Positions 1,319 to 64,000 of a stretch of 64,000 nucleotides of DNA are shown piece by piece (position 1 is the stretch's first letter; each line of letters starts with the position of its first letter). The stretch covers positions 1-64,000 of IMG/VR virus record IMGVR_UViG_3300044630_002618; one strand, given 5' to 3'. Source of the stretch: a virus (Duplodnaviria > Caudoviricetes). The notes beneath the pieces are model-generated. The model saw only the letters and a list, made by a program, of their open reading frames with translations, did not search any database and was not told the DNA's origin. The position numbers were made by a program, and so were the translations under genes.

Positions 1319-1566
1319 TAGTACAACCTACCTTGTTCGTAATAGTTATTTGCTGGTACCACACCTTTGGATTCAGCATGACCAGTGCGGAAATGAACTT
1401 GGCGTGGGTTTAAAGAACGCTCGTCCCACTGTCGTGGTTCACGCCAGTCACCACTTGAGTTATCGCGGTCGTTGGGAGTGGTCGGTGGCTTTTTACGACC
1501 ACCACCGCTACCCATACTTCCACCAGCAAGTGGCTGTAGTTCTGTGATGTCCTTAATGACCTGCAT
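1318..1566 (-). CDS. Hypothetical protein ending in QGRLY
   Basis: 82 aa ORF in the operon. Confidence 0.7.
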   Translation of the reverse strand: MQVIKDITELQPLAGGSMGSGGGRKKPPTTPNDRDNSSGDWREPRQWDERSLNPRQVHFRTGHAESKGVVPANNYYEQGRLY

Positions 1567-1572
1567 GAGTTA

Positions 1573-1860
1573 TTACTTCTTACAATCGCAGTTGGGCTTA
1601 CCGCATTCACAGTCTTTTTTGCTGGTCATTGGGTATGACGGACCAGTGGGCGTTGGTGTGTCCATGTAGCCTTGCATAGCAATGGCTTCAGCCTGTGATT
1701 CAACGGGACCCCAAGCCTCATCGTACATACTGTCACCTTGTTCATAGTCATCGCCAAAGTAGGCTTGACTGCCACCGTAGGCAGGTGCGTTTACAGAGGT
1801 GCCCCATGCTTGTCCATGTTCACGATTACGGCGATGGACGCCACGCATTACTTTTGCCAT
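1573..1860 (-). CDS. Hypothetical protein with C-terminal Cys cluster
   Basis: AAGGAG RBS; ends CECGKPNCDCKK. Confidence 0.75.
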   Translation of the reverse strand: MAKVMRGVHRRNREHGQAWGTSVNAPAYGGSQAYFGDDYEQGDSMYDEAWGPVESQAEAIAMQGYMDTPTPTGPSYPMTSKKDCECGKPNCDCKK

Positions 1861-1883
1861 GATAATTACTCCTTAGTATGTGT

Positions 1884-2372
1884 TTACTTCCACATTGGTG
1901 CAAGTGATTTTAGCATGCTTCTTCGTTGCATATCTATAATTTGCTTGTCGGGTCGCTCTAAACCACGCGGAATACCGCGAGGTCCTGCCTTACCGTCATT
2001 GGTTAATCGGACTGGTTCTGCTCCTGGGGGCGCAAACTTCTTACCCTTAGATTCAAGCATGATTCCAGTTAAAAGATTAAATTCTTGAGGCCAAATATAA
2101 TCTCCAGCATTAATCCGCTCTCCTTTATGAACTCCGCGGGAATATGCTCGCTGATTGGCACGAACCGCGGCGTTAGTCAGTTTGTCCTGACGGCGGTTGC
2201 TGGACATGGTCCCAAGATACCCATCGGGGTATTGGGTGTCAGGACCAACTCCAAATGCAGAGATGCGCTGATCTTTGGCGCTACGGAATACAGGCGTTGG
2301 ACCCGTTCCCGAGACCATGCCTGATTCAGGGCTAGATGATGGGGACTGCCAGTTGGCAAATGAGGTAGCCAC
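1884..2372 (-). CDS. Hypothetical phage protein
   Basis: 162 aa ORF, GTG start coupled to the upstream stop. Confidence 0.75.
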   Translation of the reverse strand: MATSFANWQSPSSSPESGMVSGTGPTPVFRSAKDQRISAFGVGPDTQYPDGYLGTMSSNRRQDKLTNAAVRANQRAYSRGVHKGERINAGDYIWPQEFNLLTGIMLESKGKKFAPPGAEPVRLTNDGKAGPRGIPRGLERPDKQIIDMQRRSMLKSLAPMWK

Positions 2373-2509
2373 TAGCCACCAAATCCTGGAGATGTACCAG
2401 TAAACATGCCACCCTGACCGCCACCAAAAGGTTCTACGGGGCGTGGCTTTTTAATTCCTCGCTTGATGAACTCGTTGCGAGGGTCGGGTCGGTATGTTTT
2501 CTTTGCCAT
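2372..2509 (-). CDS. Small hypothetical protein (45 aa)
   Basis: MAKKTYRPDPRNEF...GGGQGGMFTGTSPGFGG; TGATG coupling. Confidence 0.6.
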   Translation of the reverse strand: MAKKTYRPDPRNEFIKRGIKKPRPVEPFGGGQGGMFTGTSPGFGG

Positions 2510-2670
2510 CAGTCGTAATCGTCCCATTCATAATCTTTAACTTTGGGTTTAACTTTGCTCTTATCTTTAGATGCTTTTCTTACATAGTAAAGATCGTCAT
2601 CTTCATCATCAGTTGAGTATCCCAAATTGTCCAGCATGTCATCCCATGAGGGTGGGTCTAGCGGTGCCAT
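2509..2670 (-). CDS. Small acidic/basic hypothetical protein (53 aa)
   Basis: MAPLDPPSWDDMLDNLGYSTDDEDDDLYY... Confidence 0.6.
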   Translation of the reverse strand: MAPLDPPSWDDMLDNLGYSTDDEDDDLYYVRKASKDKSKVKPKVKDYEWDDYD

Positions 2671-2686
2671 ATTGTTAGCCTTTTAT

Positions 2687-3478: not shown

Positions 3479-3481
3479 TAT

Positions 3482-4178: not shown

Positions 4179-4180
4179 CG

Positions 4181-4390: not shown

Positions 4391-4887
4391 GCTGTGTACC
4401 TTGCCATTCTGTTGTCCTTACTACCAAGACCGATACGCCGTGATAGTTCGCGGGATAATAGTTGCGCCCCGCGTTCGCAGGTATCAAACATAGTCTGTAC
4501 CAGTTTACGATATGCGCGAGCAACTTGGTATGCCTCCTGCTGTGCAACCACTGCTGGGTCTACATCGCGTCGTGCTTTAGCCAAGGTTACTCGGTCAGCC
4601 TTGTCGGCTGAGTTCCACTGGCTAATGAGGACCATGGACTCAGACAGTCGGCACTTGTGGGACTGCTTGTCTTCGTCAATCTCAGCCTTGACTAACTCAG
4701 CCTGTGAATACGAGACCCAACCCATGAACTCTCTATAGAGATTCATCAGATCGGCGTCTGACAACCCGTCTAGGTCCCTCGGTATCTCGGGTGGGGATTC
4801 CGCTGGTCTCGCTGGGAGACTGAACTTGTCCGTGAACCTCTCCAACGGATCGTTGGACGGTACTGATCTGATTATTCGTGTCATCAT
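4387..4887 (-). CDS. Helical protein, possible UvsY-like recombination mediator
   Basis: Coiled-coil pattern ending LSRELSRR; lies in the RecA/exonuclease block. Confidence 0.5.
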   Translation of the reverse strand: MMTRIIRSVPSNDPLERFTDKFSLPARPAESPPEIPRDLDGLSDADLMNLYREFMGWVSYSQAELVKAEIDEDKQSHKCRLSESMVLISQWNSADKADRVTLAKARRDVDPAVVAQQEAYQVARAYRKLVQTMFDTCERGAQLLSRELSRRIGLGSKDNRMARYTA

Positions 4888-5752
4888 CTTCTCCCCAGCA
4901 TTTGTTTTTGTATGGGCATTTCTTGCATGTTGCGTTGTCTATTCCTGACGCCCAAACTGGGCGCATTGGTGGTCTCTTGCCTTCAAGATGAGAGACCACA
5001 TCTTTACATCCTTCAAGGATACTCTCAATAATCTCAGGTTGGAACCTGACATTGAATTCTTTTACATCCTGCGTTGGCTTCCACTCGTATATAAATGCCA
5101 GTTCGTGAATACCCATACAGAACATGTACATGTTTGCTTGGCGGAGATGGGATGGGAATGGCTTACGAATGCGATTCCATAATTCATCTATGGTTATTTC
5201 ACCCTTAGAGTAAGGTACGAATAACTCAGGAGCCTCAAATCTAATAGTCCCAGTGCCGACACTCTTAATCTCAATCAAAAGTTGACCGTTTGCGTCTTCA
5301 ACGATTCCGTCTGCATGACCCGTGATGTTGTATTCCTCATTACGGATCGGGACTTCTGCGTAACGGATACTGTTGGAACCACAACTACATAATGAAAAGT
5401 CTTCTTCTGAGACAGTCCCACAGGCATTGCACTTGAATAGTCCCCGTAGAACTCCAGCGTTCCGTAACCACTGTTGCCACTTATGGTGGATGGCGTTACC
5501 TTCAGCAAAAATGTTAAGGCGACCAAAGGTGAGTGTCTCGGCTGGTTTAGGGAAACCCTTAATCGCATACCATGACGAGCGCGGACACCAATCCTTCTTG
5601 CAGATTTCGCTGGGGTGTAAGCCTAAGGTATCGCGTTTAGCCTGACCATTGACATTCTCTAATGACGCCTGGACTCGGACAATTGGTACGATCCGTCCAG
5701 TTGATTTGGCATTTTCTTTGAACTGGTCTAATAACCATTTACTGCTACTCAC
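4733..5752 (-). CDS. Cas4/RecB-like PD-(D/E)xK exonuclease
   Basis: HPSE...CPR, GHADG, IEIKS, QANMY, C-terminal CxxCPYxxxC. Confidence 0.85.
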   Translation of the reverse strand: MSSSKWLLDQFKENAKSTGRIVPIVRVQASLENVNGQAKRDTLGLHPSEICKKDWCPRSSWYAIKGFPKPAETLTFGRLNIFAEGNAIHHKWQQWLRNAGVLRGLFKCNACGTVSEEDFSLCSCGSNSIRYAEVPIRNEEYNITGHADGIVEDANGQLLIEIKSVGTGTIRFEAPELFVPYSKGEITIDELWNRIRKPFPSHLRQANMYMFCMGIHELAFIYEWKPTQDVKEFNVRFQPEIIESILEGCKDVVSHLEGKRPPMRPVWASGIDNATCKKCPYKNKCWGEDDDTNNQISTVQRSVGEVHGQVQSPSETSGIPTRDTEGPRRVVRRRSDESL

Positions 5753-6077
5753 TGATCATCTCCAAAAAGTCGTCTTCGCGCAGGATGACATACCTCTTGC
5801 CACCTAAGTCAAATTGTAATACTGGTGTTCGGTCTTCTTTGATAGCCACAGTTTCTAGATCACGGAGGTCCGTAAACTTGATTGAGTAAGACTTAAGGTT
5901 ATCTGTAAACTTATTCTCAATAAGAAAATGTTCTGATCTGACATCATTCTTACGCAACCAACCCGATCCTGACCCAGCGTTACGGCTCCCCTTATAGGCA
6001 GACGCTGTTCGGTCTTCTTGCTTGCGCGATTTCTTCTGAATGTATCGCTTTTCGCTACCGTCTGAGCCAATAATCAT
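5745..6077 (-). CDS. Small PD-(D/E)xK nuclease / resolvase-like protein
   Basis: QE...GSGSGW.RKNDV....LIENK motif. Confidence 0.65.
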   Translation of the reverse strand: MIIGSDGSEKRYIQKKSRKQEDRTASAYKGSRNAGSGSGWLRKNDVRSEHFLIENKFTDNLKSYSIKFTDLRDLETVAIKEDRTPVLQFDLGGKRYVILREDDFLEMISE

Positions 6078-7087
6078 TTGACAGCGAAATGGTTTCGTGC
6101 GACTTCAGTGAGGGCATCCCTAAGACCGAGGTCTTCACGAACTGACGCAAGGACGGCATCCTTGCCCTGCCATTTCTGACCGTTGAACGAGTAGAACGCA
6201 CCAGCGCGTGTGATGGCGTTAATAGCAATAGCAATATTAACGATATCTTTAATGGTGTCAAACTCTCCGAGTTTAAAACCACTGGCGCTACCGTCCGCGA
6301 AGTAAAAGTCAACTTGTGCTGTCTGTTGTGGGCGGTAAGTCTTATTCTTTAAAGTACGCGCTTTGATGACCTGACCAAAGGCTTCGTCTTTTTCTTTGAT
6401 CCACTCATCGCGTTTAACTTCCACACGAGTGAAGTAATGGTAGTTCTTAGCCTTACCCCCAGGGGTAGTTCGTGGGTCACCATACATAACACCAATCTTT
6501 TCGCGCCACTGGTTAATCATTAAACCTGTGCAACCACGGTCGGCATTAACCATTGAACGCTTCTGAGCCTTGGCGCTCTTCTTCATAAACTTGCTGGTGA
6601 GTCGGGCACCGAGACCTACGGTGAACTCTTCCATCATCTTTTCGTTCTCATCATTGGGGATAAGGGCTGGGAATGAGTCAACCACGATGCAGTCCACGGC
6701 TCGGTTATCTAGAGCCTTGGTGATGAGGTCATATGCCTGTTCCATAATGTTGGTCTCAACGATCCAAATGCGCTCTAAGTCAATGCCAATTGCTTGGGCA
6801 TACTCGGGAACGAACTCTTCAGCCGCGATCCATAGGACGACCCACTCAGGGTCTAAGGCTTGATTAGCCGCGATTGTCTTGAGAACAAGAGCAGTCTTAC
6901 CTGATGATTCATCTCCAATGATCTCAGACCATTGGTTGACAGGCCAACCGCCACCGAGCATGAGGTCAAATGCTAAGACTCCCGTAGTAATACGGGGAAG
7001 TTCTTGGCGCATCTCTGAACCCTTGATGATGGTATTAGCGCCATGCTTCTTATTGATGATGTCCTTGATTGATTCAAAAGTGTCCAT
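6074..7087 (-). CDS. recA: RecA/UvsX recombinase
   Basis: GGGWP...EIIGDESSGKT Walker A, IVVDS Walker B, INQWREKIGVMYGDPRTTPGG. Confidence 0.95.
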   Translation of the reverse strand: MDTFESIKDIINKKHGANTIIKGSEMRQELPRITTGVLAFDLMLGGGWPVNQWSEIIGDESSGKTALVLKTIAANQALDPEWVVLWIAAEEFVPEYAQAIGIDLERIWIVETNIMEQAYDLITKALDNRAVDCIVVDSFPALIPNDENEKMMEEFTVGLGARLTSKFMKKSAKAQKRSMVNADRGCTGLMINQWREKIGVMYGDPRTTPGGKAKNYHYFTRVEVKRDEWIKEKDEAFGQVIKARTLKNKTYRPQQTAQVDFYFADGSASGFKLGEFDTIKDIVNIAIAINAITRAGAFYSFNGQKWQGKDAVLASVREDLGLRDALTEVARNHFAVK

Positions 7088-13117: not shown

Positions 13118-14348
13118 CCGCAGTCACCTCCGAGAAGTCCATGTTCTCCCAGTCCCACTTGATGTGTACTTCACCTGTGGGTGCGGAACGAGCCGCGACT
13201 ACGCGAATGATTGCTTGATCGTCTAAGTCAGGGTTACGCTCAACGCCGAGTACTAGGTCTGCGTCTTGCACGAACGACGATGAGTAACCAATTGCGTCGG
13301 TAGTAATTGCTCGCGTCTTCTTGTTACCAAGTTTCCAACCAAGAGCCTGCGTCGTTGCCACAACAGGAATGTCAAGTTTCTGAGACATACGCTTTAGACC
13401 ACGGGTGATATTGGTTAATGCCTGCGGGCTTCCTTTGGCTTCACCTTCCTCATCGTCCATGAGATACACACCGTCAACGATCAATAGGTCAGGTGAGTAC
13501 TCCTTGACCTTGCCCGTAAGGGCTGAGATAGTCGTGAGTGACGAGGTGTCTTCACTGAAGATAAACGGTTGCATGTTCTTGCGTTGCATGAGGGAGCGAC
13601 GAATGCGTTCCATTTCTTTGTTATCTAACTCACCACGAAGAATCTTGTTGAATGGGGTCTTGGAGATGATTGCGTCGTAACGCGCTTCTTGTTCCTCAAT
13701 GCTCATTTCAAACGAAACGAACATGGGAATCTTGCCATGGATGTGGCAAGAGTTAGCAATAATAAGAGCAAACAAAGACTTACCACGCTTTGGCTCACCC
13801 ACGAATACAACGAACTGTTGCGGTCTGAGACCTGAAGTAATTCTGTCTAAACCAAAGAACCCTGTTGGGATACCGCGCAGGGAGTTTGGTGTGCTACGCA
13901 TTTCTTCGTAGCGCATAACGCGAGTTTCCCAGTTTTGGATGATGTCAATATCCCGCATGCGGGACACTTCAACCGCGGCTGTTTGAATACCAACCGTCAG
14001 TGTGTCTAGGGCATCTTTGGTACGACCAACATTCAACAATGGCATTGTTGTTGAGATGACCTCAATCAAACGGTGCTGAGTATGCGCCTGAAAGATTTCC
14101 TCAATGAGTCGTGAGAATGTTTCAGCCTCGGCGTCATACAACTGGATGTCGGCGTACTGTGACTTGAATACACGCGCTGTCGGTACGGCATTGTGTTCTC
14201 GGTAAAAGCCCGTAAGCCAATGCCACACGCCCTGCCATGTATCTGAAAAGTGTTCTTCCTTAACTCCGGATTTTAACGGCGTTGCAATGTCAGCAGTTTG
14301 GATGATCTTTGAAACTAGGAGATGTTCGGGGGACGACATGATTACCAC
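13086..14348 (-). CDS. dnaB: Replicative DnaB-like helicase
   Basis: GIPTGF..LD.ITSGL, GEPKRGKS, SFEMS, IVDGVYLM, QDAD. Confidence 0.92.
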   Translation of the reverse strand: MVIMSSPEHLLVSKIIQTADIATPLKSGVKEEHFSDTWQGVWHWLTGFYREHNAVPTARVFKSQYADIQLYDAEAETFSRLIEEIFQAHTQHRLIEVISTTMPLLNVGRTKDALDTLTVGIQTAAVEVSRMRDIDIIQNWETRVMRYEEMRSTPNSLRGIPTGFFGLDRITSGLRPQQFVVFVGEPKRGKSLFALIIANSCHIHGKIPMFVSFEMSIEEQEARYDAIISKTPFNKILRGELDNKEMERIRRSLMQRKNMQPFIFSEDTSSLTTISALTGKVKEYSPDLLIVDGVYLMDDEEGEAKGSPQALTNITRGLKRMSQKLDIPVVATTQALGWKLGNKKTRAITTDAIGYSSSFVQDADLVLGVERNPDLDDQAIIRVVAARSAPTGEVHIKWDWENMDFSEVTADGYGVGDAFD

Positions 14349-14776
14349 GCTCTTTCGGAACCAAGCACTGTAGCGCGTATCCCAATGATTGCTTGCTGTT
14401 CTTGGGTGGCAACATAAATAACATGAATACTTCTGTTGAAGCGTAGGTCTTCTGCCAATGTTTCAATGTCAGGGTAAGCCTCTACCGAAGTAGAAACACC
14501 TTTGCGGATTAACCAATGCTCAATTTCGGGAACTGCCTCAACTGGCATGAGCGTGTAAATCAATGTACCAATACCACGGCGGTTCACTGAATCAATTAGA
14601 GACTTCAGTGGTAGTTCGTTTGGCTTCATGGTGTTAACCAGTGTGGGCATGTCTTTGACTTTTGATGCAAACCAGTTGCGTACTGACTTTGCACCTTTTG
14701 GGTAACTTGCTAAGACTCCCTCAAACAAAACTGCTTGCTGGATTGGTGCGTATGGGGCTAGGTCATTGCCCTGCAT
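14342..14776 (-). CDS. Hypothetical protein, possible degenerate HAD-like fold
   Basis: VLFEGVL resembles HAD motif I without the catalytic Asp; sits between loader and helicase. Confidence 0.55.
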   Translation of the reverse strand: MQGNDLAPYAPIQQAVLFEGVLASYPKGAKSVRNWFASKVKDMPTLVNTMKPNELPLKSLIDSVNRRGIGTLIYTLMPVEAVPEIEHWLIRKGVSTSVEAYPDIETLAEDLRFNRSIHVIYVATQEQQAIIGIRATVLGSERAW

Positions 14777-41502: not shown

Positions 41503-41507
41503 TGGGG

Positions 41508-42454: not shown

Positions 42455-43596
42455 TCCGGAGAGTAAACCTTACCACGGAAAAAAGCGGTCTTATTATGGA
42501 TAGGTATCTGTTCATACCAAAAGGCGCCTTCACCATCCTCATAAGATACAACCGCTAGACCCTGTTGCCAGTCCTCCACAATGGTCATTGGGCGACCGTC
42601 TAGGTCAATACCGCCCTTAGTGCTGGGTACGGCACCGTCACAGCGGGCTAGTGTCCCTGGGGACGCCGCCATGATGGTCTTTGCCCCATCCCAGTCTTCT
42701 CGTGACCGTTCAGCCCATTCCCTACGGTGAATGTGCCCGTAGATGACGGATACCTTGCTGTCGTTGAGGTAGGCGTGGGCGGTTGAACCGTTAGACCTGA
42801 CCTTGTTTCCGTGGATGACTTTGAGCCTTTGATTAATCCATACTTGTCCAGCAGGGTAGCCAGCCACATAATTAACCCCGTAATCATTGAAACGGCATAG
42901 GTAAGGCACACTAAGGCAAGGCCAAGAATCCGGAGTGTTCCCCCGACGCAAGCCGAACGAAACCTTTGCATTGTCCAAGATGAAGTTGACGAGGCGTTCT
43001 TCATGGTTACCTGAAATCCAATCTATGACGGCGTTTGGTGCGACGGCTCGTAACTCAGCGCACAGAGTCGTAGCGCGGTCAATAGACGCCTGAGTGGTAA
43101 TTGCATATGCTGGGCTGAGACGGTACTTACCGAACTCAGGAAAGTCAAGGTTGTCACCGACCATGATGATTCGGTCAGGGTTCAACTTCTTGATAATCGC
43201 CATGGAGATAGAGAGAGCCTCTTCGTCATGGGTGGGTTCAAGACTCCCGTCAGCATTTCGGTAGTAACCGATCTGCATGTCAGGGAGGATAACCGCTACT
43301 TTGTATCCCTCTGTATTACTTTGTATTACTTTGCGTACTGGGAGTTTGATTGACGGCCCTGGTTGTACCACGGGCCAATCAGGTCCTTCAGCCCACTTGG
43401 GATTGAATTGGATACCCATGAGGTCGTGAACCTCAGCCTGACCTTGGTCATTCTTAGTGAGTGACTGGTAGAGGGATACGCGCTTGATTGATCCCACTTC
43501 TTCAACATCAATGTTATTGCGGTTTAATAACTCCGCAATCTTTCCCAATGTTGCTTTTGCTGGGGGTGTTCCTAGATCATCACTAAGGCTTGCCAC
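42451..43596 (-). CDS. Calcineurin-like metallophosphoesterase
   Basis: PDMQIG, GDNLD, GNHE, HG, GHIH. Confidence 0.9.
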   Translation of the reverse strand: MASLSDDLGTPPAKATLGKIAELLNRNNIDVEEVGSIKRVSLYQSLTKNDQGQAEVHDLMGIQFNPKWAEGPDWPVVQPGPSIKLPVRKVIQSNTEGYKVAVILPDMQIGYYRNADGSLEPTHDEEALSISMAIIKKLNPDRIIMVGDNLDFPEFGKYRLSPAYAITTQASIDRATTLCAELRAVAPNAVIDWISGNHEERLVNFILDNAKVSFGLRRGNTPDSWPCLSVPYLCRFNDYGVNYVAGYPAGQVWINQRLKVIHGNKVRSNGSTAHAYLNDSKVSVIYGHIHRREWAERSREDWDGAKTIMAASPGTLARCDGAVPSTKGGIDLDGRPMTIVEDWQQGLAVVSYEDGEGAFWYEQIPIHNKTAFFRGKVYSPE

Positions 43597-43849
43597 AACT
43601 GCACTTCCCCTTTATATGTCGTTCTATGGTGCTTCGGCTAATTTGATGTCCGTGCTTAACTAGCACATTCGCTAACCACATAGAAGAATATACCTTAGAC
43701 CTACCCTTACCGGGGTCAGTCATAATTCTTTCTAATGCAGTATTTAGTGCGGTTAGTTCATCTCCGTGAAGTTCGTCCCTGAGAGTGGCAATACCACACC
43801 CCCAATTAATTGGACCACGCGAGAGCAATTCATTACTTAACTCGCTCAA
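43583..43849 (-). CDS. Small HTH/Zn protein coupled to the phosphoesterase
   Basis: TTG start with AAGGAG RBS; ISRSTIERH...CSC. Confidence 0.7.
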   Translation of the reverse strand: MSELSNELLSRGPINWGCGIATLRDELHGDELTALNTALERIMTDPGKGRSKVYSSMWLANVLVKHGHQISRSTIERHIKGKCSCGKP

Positions 43850-43991
43850 CTTTCTGCTCCTTATTGTGTGACATTTTCTGGATTCCTCCAAGAACTGATA
43901 TCAACCGTAGCACCTCTTGCTCCTCTGTGTGACCACGAGGCGCAAGTCTCGTAAGATATTGTGTAATTAATGCGGCATCTGACGGGCGCAT
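43833..43991 (-). CDS. Small hypothetical protein (52 aa)
   Basis: Not in ORF track; AAGGAG RBS; MRPSDAALITQYLTRLAPRGHTEEQEVLRLI... Confidence 0.7.
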   Translation of the reverse strand: MRPSDAALITQYLTRLAPRGHTEEQEVLRLISVLGGIQKMSHNKEQKVERVK

Positions 43992-44057
43992 ACTCTCTCC
44001 TTCTACTGGGAAGGAAAGGTTATCAGAGCCTAGAAAGTACTGTTATTGCGATAACAA

Positions 44058-45455
44058 TTAGAACAATGTAAGTTGTCCTCTTTCTTCAGGAGTAGGTGGT
44101 GCTTTGACTTCTGCTACTGGTGACTTACTTGCTTCTTTGGCTGCTTTTTTGGCGTCCTTAGCAAGTTGTTTTTGGGCTGCGTTGTACTCTTCATCTTCGC
44201 CAAGTACATGTCGCCGCTCTTCCACCCATGCAATGGCTTGGGCGGCTCGGGGAGTAATATGCTCATCATCAAAACTAAAATGCTCGGCGGATTGGCGGGT
44301 GGCTTCTTCATTGTAGGCATGCCTAATCTCTTCAGTTTTAACTGACGGATCAAAGGTCTTTGTACCTTTTGCAGGCTGTACAATATTTTGTGCTTCTCTT
44401 GAGGTTGCCCCTGTAGTACCCTGTCGGGCGGCTTCTTTAGCACTTAGGTGATTCATTGCGTAATCTTCAACTGCCTCGTCAGACTTTGATGGATCAAATC
44501 CAGTTTCTTCAGCCGCGGACCATAAATGACTCTGATGAAATGTTCTTGTTCTACCTTTTCCATTGCCTTCTACAAATGTGGGTGCTTGTGCCCTTCTTCG
44601 GAATATTTCATTATTAAAAGCATTTTCTTCTGGACTAGCGAGTTGGATTGCTCGTGAGAAATTACGAGTCTTAGGGACTGCTCCTACTTGATTTACTTCA
44701 TCAAATGTTTTTCCGCGAACAACAGCAACAGCCTTAGTTGCAATCTTACGGCCCGCTGAATTTAAAGTTACTCCAGTAACTTCTCTTGAAAGGTGTCTTT
44801 CATCAAGAGGTACAGGATTATTTTGCGGTATACCGTGCTTGTCTCTAATCGCTTGACTCTCAGCATAACCAAGGTGAGCAACACCTTCATCTGATAAATC
44901 ACCAATGCGTTGTTCCCCTGCGGCAATGTCGGGATTACCCATGTGGGGAACCATCCCAGGTGTAATTTCTACCATACGATCTGGGTTTCCAGCAATACGG
45001 CCCGCCGATTCAGTGGCTATTCTTTCTTGTTTTGGTGTATTCTTGACACTTAGTACACCAGCGGCATCAACGATGCTACCAATGCGTGTGCCAGTTCTGT
45101 TAGCAACATCACGATAGCCAGATTGGTGATCTGTGTACCAATCATAACCTTCAGGAGTATATGAACCCGCGGGTAGACGCCCAATTGCGGCTTGAATGGC
45201 GTTCACACGACTTGCTACAGAATCAGCCATGAGTATTGGATGACCATACGCCTTCATACCAGCATCTGCCATTGAACGATCAATATGTTCTCTGTCTTCA
45301 ACAGGAAAATCTCTATATGATACGGCTTTTTTTGGGACAATATACCCTGGATCAACTAAACTTTCTGTATTGGTAGTATCACGCTTTGGCGTTGCCAGAC
45401 GCTTCTTTGGTGCTGCTGGTGCTGGTGCTGATGTTTCTTTTTTCTTAGCCATCAC
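44058..45455 (-). CDS. Hypothetical protein ending in QLTLF
   Basis: WY, LS..N, PKT.NF, QAIAW motifs; basic disordered termini. Confidence 0.75.
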   Translation of the reverse strand: MMAKKKETSAPAPAAPKKRLATPKRDTTNTESLVDPGYIVPKKAVSYRDFPVEDREHIDRSMADAGMKAYGHPILMADSVASRVNAIQAAIGRLPAGSYTPEGYDWYTDHQSGYRDVANRTGTRIGSIVDAAGVLSVKNTPKQERIATESAGRIAGNPDRMVEITPGMVPHMGNPDIAAGEQRIGDLSDEGVAHLGYAESQAIRDKHGIPQNNPVPLDERHLSREVTGVTLNSAGRKIATKAVAVVRGKTFDEVNQVGAVPKTRNFSRAIQLASPEENAFNNEIFRRRAQAPTFVEGNGKGRTRTFHQSHLWSAAEETGFDPSKSDEAVEDYAMNHLSAKEAARQGTTGATSREAQNIVQPAKGTKTFDPSVKTEEIRHAYNEEATRQSAEHFSFDDEHITPRAAQAIAWVEERRHVLGEDEEYNAAQKQLAKDAKKAAKEASKSPVAEVKAPPTPEERGQLTLF

Positions 45456-45925
45456 AGAACCTTAAACTTTCCTGGGGTATACAAAGCATGACCAAACTGA
45501 CCAGCAATATAAGAAGGCTTATTAGACTTATAGCGGTTGTAGGAAGTCACGCCCTTACGGCGCATTTTATTAGAATCAAACTTCTGACCTGGATTAGTGA
45601 TCATAGATTTACCGTACTTACGGCCCTCTAGGTCTAACTTTTCAGACTTGAAGTTTTGCATTGGGTCAATAATGAATTCACCAATACCTGATGCATAACG
45701 GGGCATATTTAATGACCGCTTACCACCCAAGGGGCTAGGCACAAACGGGTTAGAGACCTTGGTGGCAACACCAAAGTTCTCAGCGCGCGCCGTAACTAGT
45801 TCATTACTTTTTTGGACGCGACGAAACATCCCCGCAACTGCCTCATAAGTAGACAATTCCGGAGATGACCCAATCGTGCTACTCGGTACTGGGCCAGTTA
45901 CCGAGAAACCCTCGGCAGTGCCCAT
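45452..45925 (-). CDS. Hypothetical protein
   Basis: 157 aa ORF in operon. Confidence 0.7.
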   Translation of the reverse strand: MGTAEGFSVTGPVPSSTIGSSPELSTYEAVAGMFRRVQKSNELVTARAENFGVATKVSNPFVPSPLGGKRSLNMPRYASGIGEFIIDPMQNFKSEKLDLEGRKYGKSMITNPGQKFDSNKMRRKGVTSYNRYKSNKPSYIAGQFGHALYTPGKFKVL

Positions 45926-45927
45926 GA

Positions 45928-46329
45928 TCAGTCGTAAACGACTGTTGGGTTCGGGCGGTTCATGTGACCACCCGTGTTGTACGAGTATTCAAATTGCGGG
46001 ATGTGATCTCCAGCCATTGAACCCTGTACGAACTCACCGAGCACGGTCGGGGCCTCAATCCACGAAGCAGACCCAACATGGGCGCGCTCGCGCATTGTTT
46101 CCTCAGCGTACTTGTAGAACATCTCAGGGTTGTTATGGTTCTGTCGCATGGGCGACGGAGCGGTGTCCTCGTAAGCACCAACGCCGAAGTCATAAGGGAC
46201 ATCGGTATCGGTGGCTACGCCTTCTTCAAAGCGGAGCGGGCCACGGTTACCCGGGATGCTTGGGGCGTACGAACGCTCAAACACTGGGGTGCCTTTTTCT
46301 GGAAACATGGGAACAGGTGCAACTGCCAT
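45928..46329 (-). CDS. Probable virion-associated protein
   Basis: AGGAGG RBS; capsid-like codon bias; RGPLRFEEG.ATDTDVP, RERAHVGSASW. Confidence 0.7.
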   Translation of the reverse strand: MAVAPVPMFPEKGTPVFERSYAPSIPGNRGPLRFEEGVATDTDVPYDFGVGAYEDTAPSPMRQNHNNPEMFYKYAEETMRERAHVGSASWIEAPTVLGEFVQGSMAGDHIPQFEYSYNTGGHMNRPNPTVVYD

Positions 46330-46378
46330 CTATGGATTCCTCCTAGTAGGGGTTTATCTCCACTTATCGTAGCATAGT

Positions 46379-47953
46379 TTACCTGTAAAAGGGAGAGTTA
46401 AATGACTCTACCATTGGCATTACCTCTAGTGCTGTCATACTGCAAGCAATTGCTAGTGAATCGGGGTAGTCGTCAAACGCACCCTTCTCATCAGGGGCGG
46501 CTGCTAATAGGTACGGACCGCGGTAAATCTTTTCAAGGTCACACATCTGTTGGTTGAACTTCTTCCATGATCGGGTGCGCCGAGCCTTGGAGTGTCCAGG
46601 AATAATCAACTGTTCCCGTTGCATTAACTCGGTTAGATGGACCCATCGCTCGTTCTGAGTCTTGGCATCAGACGAAACAGCCAACACCTCAATCTCAGGG
46701 AGCAAGAGTTGTAGACGCTCGGTGACAGCGCCGCCCACACCTTGGGAGTCCACACCAATGCGGTAGACATCAAAGTTACGGATGAAGTCAATCATCTCAA
46801 AGTACTGCTGTTCCCACTCAACATTGTTAATTTCTAACCAGTCAAGGACGCGGTGCTCAAAGAAACCAAACCCATCAGGGTGGTCCCAATCAACCCATAC
46901 TGCGGTAGCCACGGTGGAGTCATTGGTTCGCGCCACATCTATACCCATGACAATGGGGCTACGCCACCACTTTTTCACAATAGCCATAGATGGGTCGTAC
47001 AGGCGCTCTAGGCGCTCCTCGGTAACAAACATACCCTTTTCCAAAATCCACTTGTTGCAGTAGGACATTTGGAACTCGTCAGAATCTTCACCAATACGGG
47101 TCTTTTCCTTAGCAATGAACTTGCCGTAGTTATCGTTGTATTTAGCGGCAACTCGCCAGTCGTACTCAAAGTGTGCCTGTCTGTGGCCCCGTCTGGCGTT
47201 TGTGTCACGGCGCTTATTAAACTGGATCATCTTATAAAAGTAAGACTTATTCCTAGTAGCCGTGCCCGTAAGAACAATAGAACCGTTGTTGAACGCCAAC
47301 ATTGGCTTAATTGACTTAGAAATCATGAACTCGTCAGCCTCTTGGGCTTCGTCAATCATGACGAAGTGGTAGGTCTTAGATTCAATCTTTGCCTTAGGGT
47401 TACAGGTCTGCATACGGCAGAGTGACCCTGACTTCTTCAGGCTGATAATGCGACCCTTACCTCGGGCGCCACCTGATGCTGCTTTGTCGTCAATCTCGGG
47501 ATCAAGCAGGAAGTTCATGGCGTGTTCGCTGGTCAACTTACTGACGATACGACCGAACACGGTGTCAGCCTGATCCTCAACGGGGGCAAACACACCGCAC
47601 CAAAAGCCCCTCTCAAACTTACCCAGCCATGTGGGATAGACCTTGGACAGGCGCGGGAGAATGACCATCATGGATGCCATGACATTAGAAAGAACCTCAG
47701 ACTTACCCGATTGGCGGGTAGCAACGAGGGTTATTTCTTCACCGTCGCCAAGGACAATTGATTCAATGATCCGATAAGCAATTGGGACCTGATAAGGGAA
47801 CAAGGTGACATTAGTGAACTCTTCGGTAAAGACGATTAACTTCATGACCAGTTGGTCAACGAATTCCGTAGATGTTTCGTCTAGTTCTTCCTCTTGGTAG
47901 TCACCAATATCTTCGTTGTATTCCGTATCTTCAATATCTGATTCTTCACTCAT
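46379..47953 (-). CDS. Terminase large subunit
   Basis: RQSGKS Walker A, IDEAQ Walker B, GIDVAR and DDYPDSLA nuclease motifs. Confidence 0.93.
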   Translation of the reverse strand: MSEESDIEDTEYNEDIGDYQEEELDETSTEFVDQLVMKLIVFTEEFTNVTLFPYQVPIAYRIIESIVLGDGEEITLVATRQSGKSEVLSNVMASMMVILPRLSKVYPTWLGKFERGFWCGVFAPVEDQADTVFGRIVSKLTSEHAMNFLLDPEIDDKAASGGARGKGRIISLKKSGSLCRMQTCNPKAKIESKTYHFVMIDEAQEADEFMISKSIKPMLAFNNGSIVLTGTATRNKSYFYKMIQFNKRRDTNARRGHRQAHFEYDWRVAAKYNDNYGKFIAKEKTRIGEDSDEFQMSYCNKWILEKGMFVTEERLERLYDPSMAIVKKWWRSPIVMGIDVARTNDSTVATAVWVDWDHPDGFGFFEHRVLDWLEINNVEWEQQYFEMIDFIRNFDVYRIGVDSQGVGGAVTERLQLLLPEIEVLAVSSDAKTQNERWVHLTELMQREQLIIPGHSKARRTRSWKKFNQQMCDLEKIYRGPYLLAAAPDEKGAFDDYPDSLAIACSMTALEVMPMVESFNSPFYR

Positions 47954-47960
47954 AAGAGTA

Positions 47961-47966
47961 AGTATA
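47961..47966 (-). promoter_or_regulatory. -10 box TATACT 7 nt before the terminase ATG (leaderless)
   Basis: TATACT-TACTCTT-ATG with no SD sequence. Confidence 0.55.
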
Positions 47967-47986
47967 AAACAAAAAGCAACATAGGG

Positions 47987-48208
47987 TTACTTACTGATAT
48001 CTCTGGAGGCGATTTCTTTTAATATCTCGTGGAATACTTCAGCGGCCTGGAGTACCTCATCGTTAGTACCATCTCGGTAGCGCCAGTTATCAAATGACTG
48101 ACAAGTGTAGATAAGGCACTGCTCTCCCCATGTGGCTAATTCTGACTTAGTCATCTTTTGGAGTCGGGCAATCTTTGGGAGATCAGACTTAGGCTTGCGT
48201 CGCATCAT
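47987..48208 (-). CDS. Hypothetical protein
   Basis: 73 aa, coupled to the upstream gene. Confidence 0.65.
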   Translation of the reverse strand: MMRRKPKSDLPKIARLQKMTKSELATWGEQCLIYTCQSFDNWRYRDGTNDEVLQAAEVFHEILKEIASRDISK

Positions 48209-49206: not shown

Positions 49207-50004
49207 TCAGCCGAACATGGCTTTCCATGTCGTCGGACCAACAACGCCATCATAAGTAAGACCCTTAGCCTTCTGCCAGTTACGGACAAGTTCATGGGTC
49301 TTGGCACCAAAGTCACCATCGGGCTTTGCGCCAACGATTGCCTGAACCAACTTGACGGAGTCACCCTTTGAACCCTGCTTAACGGGTGTTCCTGGGTAAG
49401 TAAAAGTAAGTGCGGGTGCGCCTGCAGGAGCGGCGGCTGGTGCTACGGGAGCGGGTGCGCCATTAGGGGTGGCATCACCGAGGCAGTACTGCCAGTGCCA
49501 TGCCTCAAACTCTTTTGACTTTGGGTCTGAACCCTGCAAGTAGAAACCGTATGAGGGTGCATTAGTGCACATCCACTCAAAACACTTGCCACCCATTGAG
49601 GTAAGTTTGCCGTTGACATCATAACCAAGGTCAATTGCTAGCCCCCAACCGTGGTTAGAACCTTTTAGCCCTGTTGGGTCTGGAGCGGCTGAAGGGGCTT
49701 TGCCCTTCTTGAGGTACCAAGTCTTACCGTCATACTTGCGAGTAACGCCAGTACCAGTGTCTGTCGTGACATAGCGATCCATGAACATATTCAACTGACC
49801 TTCAAATGAGCGGTAGTCGCCCACATTTTTCAATTTAAAGCCAGCGGCGAGAGCGGCGTCGTACAACTTATTGAATTGCTCTGCGACTGGTGCGTACATC
49901 TTTCCGCCAGTCTTAACGGAAGCCAAAACGCTTGGTGCTAACTGACCGTTCTTAAACTGCTTAAGTGCGGTAGGCACTACCAGTTTGATGCAGGGGTAAT
50001 TCAT
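49207..50004 (-). CDS. Endolysin: M15 peptidase plus peptidoglycan-binding domain
   Basis: YRS..Q, SNHGWGLAID, EAWH; DGDFG..T, DGVVGPTTW. Confidence 0.9.
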   Translation of the reverse strand: MNYPCIKLVVPTALKQFKNGQLAPSVLASVKTGGKMYAPVAEQFNKLYDAALAAGFKLKNVGDYRSFEGQLNMFMDRYVTTDTGTGVTRKYDGKTWYLKKGKAPSAAPDPTGLKGSNHGWGLAIDLGYDVNGKLTSMGGKCFEWMCTNAPSYGFYLQGSDPKSKEFEAWHWQYCLGDATPNGAPAPVAPAAAPAGAPALTFTYPGTPVKQGSKGDSVKLVQAIVGAKPDGDFGAKTHELVRNWQKAKGLTYDGVVGPTTWKAMFG

Positions 50005-60115: not shown

Positions 60116-60679
60116 CTACCGTGGGTTAAACATAAATGAACCAGTATCGCCAATACCCGCTCGTTCAGCAAATACTGGTGAAGTTCGCCGTATGCCTGGT
60201 ACAGGTACTAATCCTTGTATTGGTTTTGATGTTTGCCTTGGTCGGGGTGTCCAAAGACCTGGCTGGCTTGGGGTGTGGATAATAGAAGTTGGATCATCCT
60301 CAGTACCAGCCTGCCCTGCTCTTAGGATAAGACGATGTGCCCGTGACATTTCTGTAGATGAGGGCATAGCAATTGGGTGACCCATAAGAAATGTATTTCG
60401 TGATTTTTGTCCAGTAGTGGAGTTCCAATGATCCGCTAACTGAGTTGCATCTATCCTAATACGGGGAAACTCAACAGAAGAACGAGAAACTGATCCAAAA
60501 TACCGATGCTCACCTGTATCGTCTTTGGCTAATACTGAGAATAATGGCGAACCATGTTCCTTCATGTATTTAACTCCAGATGAGCCAGAGTCTTTATGAA
60601 CTTGAACCTCAGAACCAGCGTGAGTATTGACTACTTCATCCCAATCAATAATACGCTTTGGTATTTTTCTCTTAGCCAT
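60116..60679 (-). CDS. Hypothetical protein with internal QPGLW
   Basis: GGAGG RBS, 187 aa. Confidence 0.7.
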   Translation of the reverse strand: MAKRKIPKRIIDWDEVVNTHAGSEVQVHKDSGSSGVKYMKEHGSPLFSVLAKDDTGEHRYFGSVSRSSVEFPRIRIDATQLADHWNSTTGQKSRNTFLMGHPIAMPSSTEMSRAHRLILRAGQAGTEDDPTSIIHTPSQPGLWTPRPRQTSKPIQGLVPVPGIRRTSPVFAERAGIGDTGSFMFNPR

Positions 60680-61024: not shown

Positions 61025-61576
61025 TTATATAAAAGATGGACCGTTAATTCCAGTCACTTTTAAGTGTTCCTCCGGATTGTAGATGGTGACATCTGCGTCT
61101 GGACTCCACGCGGCGATACTATCGCGGTTGCCATGATAACCCCAACTTGAGAGTGTGTCAGCAACATTTTCAGTGTTCTTATTAGATTTTGCCCAGTTAT
61201 GGACTGCCTGATGACCCTTACCATAATGGCTCATGTCAAAGTGACCACCGTGGTCATCTAACCATTCTTCAGGATCAGATTTACCATAGTCATGGTAATC
61301 ATTCAGCGCCTGAGTAACTTGACGCTGACTCTCTAGGTGTGGGTCGTCATTAATGTCCCCATAAATACGCAATGCACGAGTTGGCTGTGTCGTGACAACA
61401 TGATCACCCCATGCACGGGCATCAACCTCACGGGTAGTCATGTATGCGCCAGGAATACCTGCGATTACATCATCACCTGAGGGTGATATACCGTGCTGAA
61501 GGATGCTCTTTACATTGTGTCCGCTGGTTCCATGGAATAGCGTTTGGTCTTTATTAATGTACTCGTGAGCAGGCAT
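61025..61576 (-). CDS. Putative ADP-ribosyltransferase (HYE/PARP-like fold)
   Basis: LFHGTS....SILQHG......G.PGAYMT.....A..W. Confidence 0.6.
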   Translation of the reverse strand: MPAHEYINKDQTLFHGTSGHNVKSILQHGISPSGDDVIAGIPGAYMTTREVDARAWGDHVVTTQPTRALRIYGDINDDPHLESQRQVTQALNDYHDYGKSDPEEWLDDHGGHFDMSHYGKGHQAVHNWAKSNKNTENVADTLSSWGYHGNRDSIAAWSPDADVTIYNPEEHLKVTGINGPSFI

Positions 61577-61821
61577 TACTCCGTCTTTTCAATTTTGTCA
61601 AACACTGAGTTGATCTCTCCAGCGTCTAACTTACCATCATCAATGTATGCCCGCGCAAGTCCTTCAATAACTGTGGACATACCACCGATACCAGCCATGA
61701 GGCAGGCTTTCCATAATGGTACACCTGCGATAGCGCCCGCTCCAACCACACCAAGTGCTGAGGCGGCAAATACTGCCAGAATCCGCATGCTGATGGCTTT
61801 AATGTTTGTAATATCGTTCAT
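61576..61821 (-). CDS. Small membrane protein (holin-like)
   Basis: Two TM segments; C-terminal DDGKLD..EIN. Confidence 0.7.
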   Translation of the reverse strand: MNDITNIKAISMRILAVFAASALGVVGAGAIAGVPLWKACLMAGIGGMSTVIEGLARAYIDDGKLDAGEINSVFDKIEKTE

Positions 61822-62501
61822 TATTGGTCCTCTCCAAACAATGATTGCTGTCCCTCAATCGGTTGACCGCGCTTAGTCTTAGGCGCTTTCTCTTCCTTAC
61901 CGCGTCGTACACGACCCACCAATGTGTTACGCGCCTCACGAACAACATCGGGGTGAATTGCTTCTACCCCTTCGTTTCCGTCATACTCGTGCATGTAGTT
62001 GCTAAAAAGAGGCATGACTCGCCCTGGTGGTACCGTTGCTCGCTTTGGCACATCGCGTTTGTCAACAACACCAAACTTTGCAAGATGGCGGACAACTCTG
62101 TGGCTGTCCCGTGTCAGAGAATGGTCAGGGATTAACGGCAAACCAGCCTCAGTGGCATCCTGGTGGGCAAGAGCCATGAGACTCATTGCCGTGGTGTTAT
62201 TACCACCCATAGTTCCAGCCATCATGGACAATTTACGGTGTGCTGGTTTACCATAGTTAGCGAATAGACGACCTTGACGGACAGTCTCTGCATTTCTATT
62301 TTTATTGTAATCCTTGGGGTAGTAAATTTTGTCTGTTGATTCTTCTTTAGTCCACTGGGTGTCATCGTGGTGTTCTACTTGAACTAACCCCAAATCTCGC
62401 TTACTATGTGGGTCAAACGCAAAATAGGTAGTTTTTGCGGGTGAACGCCTACCACCTGAATCTTGGGCTGGTGTATGGAATCTACGGTATTCAATCGGCA
62501 T
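61821..62501 (-). CDS. Hypothetical protein, paralog of 63307-64000
   Basis: Shared motifs with the downstream-coordinate gene; QGRLF and QQSLF peptides. Confidence 0.75.
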   Translation of the reverse strand: MPIEYRRFHTPAQDSGGRRSPAKTTYFAFDPHSKRDLGLVQVEHHDDTQWTKEESTDKIYYPKDYNKNRNAETVRQGRLFANYGKPAHRKLSMMAGTMGGNNTTAMSLMALAHQDATEAGLPLIPDHSLTRDSHRVVRHLAKFGVVDKRDVPKRATVPPGRVMPLFSNYMHEYDGNEGVEAIHPDVVREARNTLVGRVRRGKEEKAPKTKRGQPIEGQQSLFGEDQ

Positions 62502-62531
62502 ACGCCTAATTGTACTATATGTAGATACTTC

Positions 62532-63290
62532 CTATTTTTTAAGGATTACCCAAAACTCAAATGTATGCGGTGTAGTTGGGTACATTGTCTCAATAGAAAA
62601 GTTAATTAATCCAAGATCGCGCAAATCATGAATAATGTCGGTAAAACTTTCTGGAGTAAAATACCACGCATGGTCGTTACGGAGTTCACCGTTTAAAGCC
62701 TCATATTCTTCCATTGCCTGCTTTAAGCGTTCAATACGACCTACACCAGGAAAAATAGGATTATCAGTAAATAACCCATGGTTACCAGTCCAATGTGACC
62801 CAGGATCGTTGTGAGTCATGTATAGGCGGGATTCCAGCAGGGATGACGGTGAATGCCATTTACGCTTCTCTAGGTGGGCAGAAAGGATATCAGTAATGCG
62901 AGACTGATTCATAAAGTGATCAAAGCAGTAGCGATAGTCGGGGACTAATGCAAAGTACCTACCGCCGTCATTAAGTAACTTTTCTACCTGCTGTAGGTGA
63001 CTAACGAAGTCAGGCTGGTGCTCAATCACATGACTACTCAAGACGCTATCAAATGTCTCGTTTACAACCGATAAATCAGTTGGTTCAGCGACCCAATGAA
63101 TGTGGGGGATACCCTGCGTAGTAATACCCACCAACCCAGCCTGTTCATGTAACTCTTCTGTAGAGTACACATCCACATACTTGACATGTGCTCCATGTAA
63201 CAGCGGGCTGTTGAATGGGCCAATCTCCAAAGCGCTTTGTTGTGGGACTAGTGCGGCGAATTCACCGCGGTGAGTAACTTGTTGTGTCAT
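62532..63290 (-). CDS. Class I SAM-dependent methyltransferase
   Basis: LEIGP, YVD, FDSVLSSHVIEH.PD, LL..GG....VPD. Confidence 0.85.
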   Translation of the reverse strand: MTQQVTHRGEFAALVPQQSALEIGPFNSPLLHGAHVKYVDVYSTEELHEQAGLVGITTQGIPHIHWVAEPTDLSVVNETFDSVLSSHVIEHQPDFVSHLQQVEKLLNDGGRYFALVPDYRYCFDHFMNQSRITDILSAHLEKRKWHSPSSLLESRLYMTHNDPGSHWTGNHGLFTDNPIFPGVGRIERLKQAMEEYEALNGELRNDHAWYFTPESFTDIIHDLRDLGLINFSIETMYPTTPHTFEFWVILKK

Positions 63291-63306
63291 ACACAAACAA
63301 TAGCAG

Positions 63307-64000
63307 TTATTCGTCCCACAGGCTCAGTTGTGTATGTTGTTTACCCTTTTTAGAACTTCCGAGTAGGTCTCGTATACGGGTACGAGCGGCGGGTACTCGG
63401 GAAGATAAATCCTCTAAAGCATCCGATCCATGTGTATAAGCACCCATATGTCTATTAGCCAATACTGATCCACTGTTCCAAAATGTGTGACTATTCATCA
63501 CATCTCCTGCGGTTCTACCTTTTGGCATATCCTCAGAAGGAATATGACCCTCTGCGTGTAAACGGTCAACTAGGGCACCGCTATGGGCAGACAGGTTTTT
63601 ATCTGGTACCACATTTTTACCAATAGCCTCAGTAGAAGCATTATTAGCAATACCAATTAAATTCATAGCAGAAGTCTTACCAGCAAGGCTGTTCTCTGAA
63701 TACAGTCCAGTTACTACTCTTTTTGCAGGAACATTCCTGTGACCAAACATAACTAACTGCTCACCAGGCTCTGCATAACGAGTGTAAGGAGTGATATCCA
63801 AATTACTTTCATTAACTGGAGTGTCCGTATGCGTCATTTCATCATCCACCACAGGTTTTCCTGTGTGGAAGTTGCTTTCTTGGGTGGCACTAACCTCTGG
63901 ATGATGTTGTACAACTAATCTTGAGATAGCATCACCATCTTTATTGTGTGCTAAGTACTCCAAATATGCATCATCAGGATTACTTTCTTTATCTGATACA
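63307..64000 (-). CDS. Hypothetical protein (5' end beyond the window), paralog of 61821-62501
   Basis: Frame stays open past 63963 to the window edge; QLVMF and QLSLW peptides. Confidence 0.75.
   Translation of the reverse strand, partial: VSDKESNPDDAYLEYLAHNKDGDAISRLVVQHHPEVSATQESNFHTGKPVVDDEMTHTDTPVNESNLDITPYTRYAEPGEQLVMFGHRNVPAKRVVTGLYSENSLAGKTSAMNLIGIANNASTEAIGKNVVPDKNLSAHSGALVDRLHAEGHIPSEDMPKGRTAGDVMNSHTFWNSGSVLANRHMGAYTHGSDALEDLSSRVPAARTRIRDLLGSSKKGKQHTQLSLWDE

Follow-up and report, generated by a model that had tools for sequence, protein, structure and literature searches.

The window analysed here comprises the first 64 kb of IMG/VR record IMGVR_UViG_3300044630_002618, a virus of the Caudoviricetes (Duplodnaviria) represented by a single contig of 91,403 bp that carries direct terminal repeats and is rated 100% complete by CheckV. 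Two gene sets are the subject of this work: a tandem array of paralogous genes that begins near the end of the window (family A) and a gene for a protein of 465 amino acids (aa) located between the large terminase and portal genes (family B). Both code for proteins with short peptides that resemble the motif recognised by the bacterial beta-clamp (DnaN), the central hub on which replication and repair converge in bacteria, and a validated antibiotic target. The alignments support the presence of at least two mutually unrelated protein families carrying conserved motifs that fit the beta-clamp-binding consensus.

The tandem array and its family

The array is formed by five copies of genes for paralogs of about 230-300 aa (genome positions 61821-66474), which are 34-45% identical to one another (Table 1). 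In the preliminary description of the window, two of them, 61821-62501 and 63307-63963, had been listed among unrelated carriers of clamp-binding-like peptides. They are paralogs, the true start of the second gene is at 64038, and the set of carriers does not end with the window, since three more copies ending in EQLQLEGFE were identified beyond it (genome 64035-66474). The internal motif is GEQLVMFG in four copies and QGRLF in the divergent copy 1. The C-termini are QLSLWDE in copy 2, QQSLFGEDQ in copy 1 and EQLQLEGFE in the other three. Orthologs of copy 1 with 89-92% identity were identified in four genomes (G001, G002, G004 and G005), and QGRLF and QQSLF are kept in the four orthologs seen at the motifs or C-terminal ends. 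Four related phage records contain arrays of three to four full-length copies, all of them with both motifs and with the same set of C-terminal types. The AlphaFold2 (AF2) model of copy 2, with a predicted local distance difference test score (pLDDT) of 75 and a predicted template modelling score (pTM) of 0.74, is a compact fold flanked by disordered motif segments; pLDDT falls below 50 at residues 93-98 and 229-243, the location of the two motifs.

Outside the array, 26 close homologs of copy 2 were identified, and the 31 close sequences that were aligned all keep both motifs. The internal one is Q[LM][VA][ML]F in all close homologs and the C-terminal one is Q[LM]SLW[DG][DE] or Q.Q[LF]EGFE in all 31, with the exception of copy 1 (QQSLF). 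When 1.84 billion cluster representatives were searched with a profile of the family, 207 proteins were identified at E <= 1e-3, each representing a 50%-identity cluster, and the motifs were counted in the best 150 of these 207. A C-terminal motif within the last 15 residues was identified in 116 of the 150 (74 pentamers, 25 hexamer-like and 17 of the x-G-F type), against 0.9 in shuffled sequences, and an internal Q..[LM][FWY] located 100-190 residues from the C-terminal end in 117, against 4.4 in shuffled sequences; both motifs are present in 96. The C-terminal motif ends exactly at the C-terminus in 41 of the 150 and is followed by one to three residues, mostly acidic among the sequences listed, in 27. 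The distance between the two motifs is approximately 135-150 residues. Because the search profile held the motif columns, a hidden Markov model (HMM) was also built from the core only (copy 2 residues 101-228). With this model 131 of the 150 representatives are still significant at library size (103 with the C-terminal motif, 101 with the internal one and 84 with both).

The folded module is conserved as well: S153 and N182 are invariant, and a block reading PSxDLSxHSxRLV is kept. A consistent Pfam match at E <= 0.1 was obtained for none of 60 diverse members, and PHROG profiles match two of the 60, weakly. Among 10 clusters checked none carries an accession or an organism, and two are labelled 'hypothetical protein'. 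The tblastn search of 50,697 GenBank phage records with two members (copy 2 and the distant P0133) gave no match, and none of the 68 pattern matches in a scan of bacterial genomes was confirmed as a relative. A description of the family was not found in the literature searched on phages, DnaN and clamp-binding motifs.

Many distant members of the family present a conserved Q-F near the N-terminus, and in a few of them QFDLY or QFGMY is located within residues 5-11, resembling a third clamp-like motif. This Q-F is probably structural, since the region is a confident beta-strand in copy 2. Just downstream of the array, a gene for a 183-aa protein (61025-61576, minus strand) matches the PARP catalytic domain (PF00644) weakly over an N-terminal 'LFHGTSG' stretch, at E 0.0032 and 17.4 bits, below the cut-off of 26.7, and its product may be an ADP-ribosyltransferase-like takeover protein.

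The 465-residue protein and other motif carriers

The 465-aa protein, which probably starts at the ATG at 45452, has 14 metagenomic homologs with 34-93% identity. All 15 sequences, namely the window protein and its homologs P0001-P0013 and P0040, have Q[LG][TS]LF as the exact C-terminus, and the linker preceding it differs in the most distant homologs, P0013 (36-38% identity) and P0040 (34%). In the alignment of the 15 sequences Q308 and L311 of the internal motif are invariant and the aromatic residue is always W or F, the variants being QSHLW, QGHLW, QEHLF and QGVLF. The AF2 model is poor overall (mean pLDDT 52), with values below 50 at residues 299-336 and 443-465, which span both motifs. 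The disordered tails after basic linkers that the preliminary description had noted are thus present in both families, at pLDDT below 50.

No Pfam family was identified for this protein. The sole PHROG match is marginal (phrog_3842, of unknown function, E 0.0063, with no stretch passing alone). Foldseek with the model, poor as it is at pLDDT 52, gave no meaningful match, and tblastn against GenBank phages gave none. DUF7178 (PF23802), suggested by an Atlas feature lead of 0.91, was rejected: hmmscan matched 0 of 14 members at E <= 5, and at E <= 10 the genome gave no match either. Streptomyces phage BRock lacks the gene in the interval between its large terminase (TerL) and portal genes, so it is an accessory insertion and not a core morphogenetic gene.

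Table 1. Location of the motif carriers, their motifs and the reference genes
Feature	Position	Strand	Remarks
Family A copy 1, most divergent, 226 aa	61821..62501	-	BLASTP to other copies E 8e-6 and 2e-4; hmmsearch with family profile E 8.5e-37
Internal motif QGRLF, copy 1	62262..62276	-	Aligns with GEQLVMFG of the other copies
C-terminal motif QQSLF, copy 1	61836..61850	-	Followed by GEDQ; aligns with the family's C-terminal motif column
S-adenosylmethionine (SAM)-dependent methyltransferase-like gene	62532..63296	-	Interrupts the array; no motif; Methyltransf_23 E 7.7e-07, Methyltransf_11 E 2.9e-05
Family A copy 2, 243 aa	63307..64038 (window ends at 64000)	-	Paralog of copies 1 and 3-5
Internal motif QLVMF, copy 2	63745..63759	-	Residues 94-98, within GEQLVMFG
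C-terminal motif QLSLW, copy 2	63316..63330	-	Residues 237-241, followed by DE
Family A copies 3-5	genome 64035-64787, 64784-65566, 65563-66474		Beyond the window
Family B, 465-aa protein of unknown fold	44058..45455	-	Between large terminase and portal; two clamp-binding-like motifs
C-terminal motif QLTLF-COOH, family B	44061..44075	-	Last 5 residues of the 465-aa protein
Internal motif QSHLW, family B	44520..44534	-	Residues 308-312 of the 465-aa protein
QGRLY	1321-1335	-	C-terminal end of 1318-1566
QGGMF	2402-2416	-	Inside 51-aa open reading frame 2372-2527
QPGLW	60251-60265	-	Gene 60116-60679
Large terminase	46379-47953		PHROG 2, E 1.7e-26
Portal	39829-41502		SPP1_portal, E 3.9e-29

The published clamp motif has a pentamer form, Q-phi-x-[L/M]-[F/L], and a hexamer form, Q-phi-x-[L/M]-x-[F/L] (PMC11139829; PMC4564189), and a negative charge or a free carboxylate after it is described as favourable (PMC11139829). 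This consensus is fitted by QLTLF, QQSLF, QLVMF and QGRLF and, across family A, by QLxLF, QGTLF and QLQLDL. Family A alternates both forms at one alignment position, with the pentamers QLxLF, QGTLF and QLKLFED and the hexamers QLQLDL, QLELDL and QLSLPLEDY; a further ending is QPTLWED. QLSLW fits only if W is admitted at the last position as in mycobacterial ImuB, whose motif QLPLWG is an actinobacterial precedent for this variant (PMC10421592). When the alignments of families A and B were compared with hhalign, 13 columns were aligned, comprising only the motif, with a probability of 4%. As the two families share nothing else, the motif peptide seems to have been acquired independently in each. 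The carriers are therefore unrelated, as had been proposed, when family A is set against family B, and related in the case of the two listed genes that belong to one family. The motifs of both families are almost certainly functional linear motifs.

Two further candidate genes with similar peptides are located outside these families. Beyond the window, the minus-strand genes at genome 67150-67602 (150 aa) and 67887-68309 are paralogs with 31% identity and a GNGHHRL / KNGYHRV stretch that resembles the 'DGHHR' motif of ParB/Srx; Pfam finds nothing in them. The first contains an N-terminal NPEQLQMF in a segment fully conserved in four of four orthologs (64-83% identity) and is possibly a third carrier of a clamp motif. 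A 144-aa protein without Pfam match (14342-14776, minus strand), located between the DnaB-like helicase and the DnaC-like loader, presents QQAVLF at residues 13-18, the conservation of which is uninformative among orthologs with 95-96% identity.

All eight peptides quoted in the preliminary description were found on the minus strand at the positions of Table 1. Their enrichment was determined in 131 strand-consistent open reading frames (ORFs) out of 150 greedy calls over the whole genome, a set that leaves out 19 opposite-strand ORFs together with the real gene 1318-1566. The pattern Q..[LM][FWY] has 21 sites, located in 18 of the 131 proteins; the 2000 residue shuffles gave 6.85 +/- 2.53 proteins, and none of them reached 18. 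Within the last 15 residues it is present in four proteins, against 0.37 +/- 0.62 (P = 0.0005), and QL.L[FW] in two, against 0.01. The excess over shuffled proteomes, put forward as a check in the preliminary description, was observed both overall and at the C-terminal end. Five of the 18 matching proteins are paralogs, so the number of independent carriers is lower, and without the three conserved families 11 proteins are left where about seven would be expected, a number close to chance. The enrichment is genuine, but a few families account for it.

The battery of six carriers originally proposed is smaller on inspection of the orthologs. The 465-aa protein and the tandem family keep their motifs, and two of the six belong to that one family. 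QPGLW (60116-60679) was rejected as a clamp motif, as orthologs at 27-29% identity read K/RPGLV. QGRLY (1318-1566) is weak and kept in one of two orthologs, as QGYMY, the other ending in ELGGY. QGGMF (2372-2527) cannot be judged, its sole orthologs being 100% identical. The gene 1318-1566 itself (minus strand) is real, with orthologs 58-78% identical in two related phages, and overlaps a slightly longer plus-strand ORF (1287-1547) which a longest-ORF caller picks wrongly. Other loose matches were identified in PolA, the Cas4-like exonuclease, an 899-aa protein (27452-30151) that we guess to be the tape measure, tail proteins and the lysin. Their conservation is uninformative because the orthologs are 81-99% identical; in 31778-33343 the Q is K in one ortholog. 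The endolysin (49207-50004, minus strand) has an N-terminal part resembling phage D-Ala-D-Ala carboxypeptidases and about 60 C-terminal residues resembling endolysins and lysins of several Gram-positive phages, which we read as a putative wall-binding domain. The QLNMF of this endolysin is located within the N-terminal part, and orthologs differ in it only at positions 2-3; our reading is that it forms part of the catalytic-domain fold and is not a clamp motif. Taken together, the observation in the preliminary description is partly confirmed and its interpretation partly supported.

Predicted docking on the host clamp

The modelled complex comprises two copies of Streptomyces coelicolor DnaN (DPO3B_STRCO) and family A copy 2, with the family A alignment. 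The interaction score ipSAE was 0.68, 0.65 and 0.63 (median 0.65), against 0.00 in all three controls. In the calibration, 58 of 80 solved complexes reached the score mark used, as did two of 110 mismatched pairs; it holds only roughly for a three-chain job with a custom alignment. The pLDDT of the partner is no lower than 59, and 47% or more of the contacts are common to the runs. Residues 89-102 of copy 2 are predicted to contact the cleft of DnaN copy 1, and residues 234-241 the cleft of DnaN copy 2. Both motifs touch largely the same clamp residues (169-174, 245, 250, 280-282, 320-322, 346-348 and 368-376), which, by comparison with E. coli clamp-peptide structures, probably correspond to the cleft between domains II and III together with the C-terminal strand. 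The model with an actinobacterial DnaN, which the preliminary description had put forward as a check, therefore places the motifs in the clefts of the Streptomyces dimer and supports docking there. Binding of the family A and B motifs to the host beta-clamp is probable.

The phage genome is consistent with a clamp of host origin. No match was obtained in the complete genome with four HMMs (DnaN N- and C-terminal domains, T4 gp45 and PCNA), so the absence of a clamp gene, first noted for the window, extends to the whole record as far as these models go, and any clamp bound would be the one of the host. The replication set encoded by the phage comprises a family-A DNA polymerase (PolA), SSB, a DnaB-like helicase, a primase and a DnaC-like loader, and a UvsX-like recombinase and a Cas4-like exonuclease are also encoded. 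Replication of this phage does not obviously need a clamp and its replisome has no recognisable clamp user.

The G+C content is about 46% and the genes of the window are located mainly on the minus strand, as called heuristically (greedy ORFs over the whole 91.4-kb genome); no tRNA genes were identified in the 64-kb window. The closest named relatives are BRock-type Streptomyces phages, with 46-47% identity in the terminase and 30-32% in the polymerase, and megablast of positions 40000-48000 gave no nucleotide-level match. These distant relatives are the one pointer to a host, which may be actinobacterial. A recombination and nuclease cluster on the minus strand comprises a Cas4-domain exonuclease (phrog_2506, 4733-5752), a UvsX-like recombinase (phrog_97, 6074-7087) and a PDDEXK endonuclease (PF24608, 3813-4178). 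A metallophosphoesterase gene (42451-43596, minus strand, phrog_20266, E 8.5e-78) is located between terminase and portal, and BRock likewise has a metallo-dependent phosphatase gene near the terminase. Outside the window, minus-strand genes for a queuine tRNA-ribosyltransferase-like protein (genome 88102-89520, phrog_887, E 2.6e-36) and a glycosyltransferase (genome 85721-86830, phrog_7162, E 6.4e-34) were identified, which hint at a 7-deazaguanine-type or sugar modification of the phage DNA.

The explanation that we favour, with moderate confidence, is that two unrelated accessory families are two-motif clamp binders which span the host ring and most likely shut off host replication and repair. 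Family A would consist of a weakly GNAT-like module, a disordered loop with the internal motif and a disordered basic C-terminal tail with the second one; family B would present an internal Q..L[WF] and the exactly C-terminal QLTLF. The two motifs of one protein would each enter one of the protein-binding clefts of the dimeric host DnaN and, with both clefts occupied, the protein would sit across the ring. Since PolA, DnaB, primase and SSB are encoded by the phage itself and no clamp gene was found, high-avidity occupation of the host clamp would be the most likely consequence. Such occupation would exclude the host replicase, the clamp loader and the translesion and repair partners, and the outcome would be the shut-off of host replication and repair. 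We infer inhibition rather than tethering; taken on its own, the occupation of both clefts with exclusion of the host partners has slightly less than an even chance of being right. In its widest form the proposal is tentative and stands below that mark: family A could be a widespread group of phage 'clamp staples' that clasp both clefts of host DnaN and shut down all clamp-dependent processes, expanded and diversified as tandem arrays, with distinct C-terminal types per copy, in a group of clamp-less phages of about 90 kb. The same peptide would have been acquired independently by the 465-aa protein, and possibly by 67150-67602 (EQLQMF), with the host clamp as the shared address of takeover proteins.

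Several results weigh against this explanation. The passing score may reflect memory of solved clamp-peptide complexes, and the modelled clamp is a Streptomyces stand-in which may not be that of the host. EQLQLEGFE, in which three of the five copies end, places two residues between its L and F and fits neither published form exactly. Among the best 150 representatives, 34 lack a recognisable C-terminal motif and 33 lack an internal one at the expected distance, some of these being fragments. The GNAT resemblance of the module is weak: the top Foldseek matches in the PDB are nearly all GNATs, at E 0.2-2 and TM <= 0.46, and 0 of 60 diverse members match any Pfam acetyltransferase family at E <= 0.1. 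In BFVD, GNAT-domain proteins appear only at E >= 0.06, behind three uncharacterised phage proteins, and among the Atlas feature neighbours are clusters in which 13% and 48% of the members carry Acetyltransf_1. GNAT acetyltransferases bind acetyl-CoA through the motif Q/R-x-x-G-x-G/A, which was not seen in the family A alignment. In addition, Trp at the last position of the motif is described as weakening binding to the E. coli clamp (PMC11139829).

The same motifs could also work as a tether. The proteins would be parked on DNA-loaded clamps as in a 'tool-belt', the module or the 465-aa protein acting locally, for example by modifying the replisome or a DNA-bound target, or by linking replication with late functions. 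There are precedents, as MuC of phage Mu is described as needing the clamp to activate late transcription (PMC12867686) and T4 gp33 and gp55 as using gp45 (PMC9690074). The conserved modules (S153, N182 and PSxDLSxHSxRLV) suggest an activity beyond that of a plug, the distinct C-terminal motif types in five diverged paralogs, found across related phages, would fit several cargoes or affinities, and 465 aa is large for a mere competitor. However, both clefts are filled at once in the model, leaving none for a co-resident partner, as an occluder would do; the phage replisome presents no recognisable clamp user and no enzymatic family could be assigned to the carriers. Tethering in place of inhibition is for these reasons considered rather unlikely.

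Another partner and simple coincidence were also weighed. Motifs of the Q..LF type could bind a capsid, portal or scaffold protein of the phage, with a role in packaging or injection, or some other host hub. The position of the 465-aa gene between terminase and portal would agree with it, EQLQLEGFE is no textbook clamp motif, the modelled clamp is a stand-in for that of the host and short hydrophobic motifs serve many hubs. Yet the variants in the best 150 of the 207 representatives track both published clamp forms, including the preference for a free carboxylate or for residues after the motif, the score fell to 0.00 when the clamp was exchanged for an unrelated protein, and BRock-type relatives lack the gene in the TerL-portal interval, so that it is not a core morphogenetic gene. 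A partner other than the clamp is thus quite improbable. As for coincidence, the pattern is short and degenerate, about seven proteins per proteome match Q..[LM][FWY] at random, and the losses among the weak candidates (QPGLW lost, Q to K in 31778-33343, the lysin match inside the catalytic domain, QGRLY partly kept) are those of a fortuitous match. Against it stand the 15 of 15 exact C-termini of family B, the 116 and 117 of 150 in family A where 0.9 and 4.4 were expected, and the core-only control. That the matches are fortuitous as a whole is extremely unlikely; judged from these counts, chance is excluded for families A and B and stands for the weak candidates.

Comparison with known systems

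If the favoured explanation is true, family A, which numbers at least 207 50%-identity clusters and for which neither Pfam nor PHROG has a model, would be a natural bivalent binder of the clamp cleft with high avidity. It would provide a sequence signature by which hundreds of phage proteins now labelled 'hypothetical' could be annotated, and a testable example of convergence, in which several unrelated proteins of a phage reach one host hub via the same short linear motif; its endings (pentamer, hexamer, W and x-G-F) would be natural variation data on the motif forms that are kept. Known phage strategies against the clamp are few: Gp168 plugs the DNA channel and MuC uses two motifs for transcription.

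Among the closest known cases is MuC/Mor of phage Mu, which like the proteins described here is phage-encoded and has two clamp motifs (PMC12867686). MuC is reported to bind host DnaN, either of its motifs being needed, with the motif conserved across its family; its overproduction is lethal, the clamp being kept from its normal partners (PMC12867686). As described there, it is a small DNA-binding transcription factor with the motifs at the N- and C-termini (PMC12867686). The carriers in this phage are, unlike MuC, unrelated unannotated proteins without Pfam match, with one motif in an internal loop, found in arrays of three to five copies in a phage with its own polymerase. Their assignment to the Mor/MuC family was considered and rejected, as Pfam scans return no family and only the two-motif logic is in common. 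The term 'undescribed system' used in the preliminary description is an overstatement in this respect, since the use of two clamp motifs by a phage is already published for MuC (PMC12867686).

The outcome proposed here is that of SocB of Caulobacter, where a clamp motif fills the hydrophobic cleft, so that elongation during replication is blocked; SocB differs in being a chromosomal toxin-antitoxin component and, as described, in having a single motif (PMC9690074). Gp168 of the staphylococcal phage Twort likewise inhibits the host beta-clamp, but according to the accounts cited it fills the DNA channel and blocks loading, and neither the protein-binding cleft nor a clamp motif takes part in its action as described (PMC8565349; PMC11139829). 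In T4, gp33 and gp55 are, as here, several unrelated phage proteins sent to the sliding clamp by short C-terminal peptides; they bind gp45, the phage's own clamp (PMC9690074), whereas here the four HMMs identified no clamp gene.

The cellular partners of the clamp comprise the Pol III alpha subunit (an internal and a C-terminal motif), Hda (an N-terminal hexamer), Pol IV (a C-terminal hexamer) and ImuB (QLPLWG). In the descriptions available they share with the present families the motif grammar, the location in disordered tails or loops, the acidic or free-carboxylate ending and, in Actinobacteria, the W variant (PMC11139829; PMC4564189; PMC10421592). They differ in being replication and repair enzymes of known fold, while the folded parts of the proteins described here have no assignment. 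New with respect to all these systems are a large family without a name, whose defining feature is a pair of conserved motifs on either side of a folded module, the tandem amplification of this family, and the convergent acquisition of the motif by unrelated proteins of one phage.

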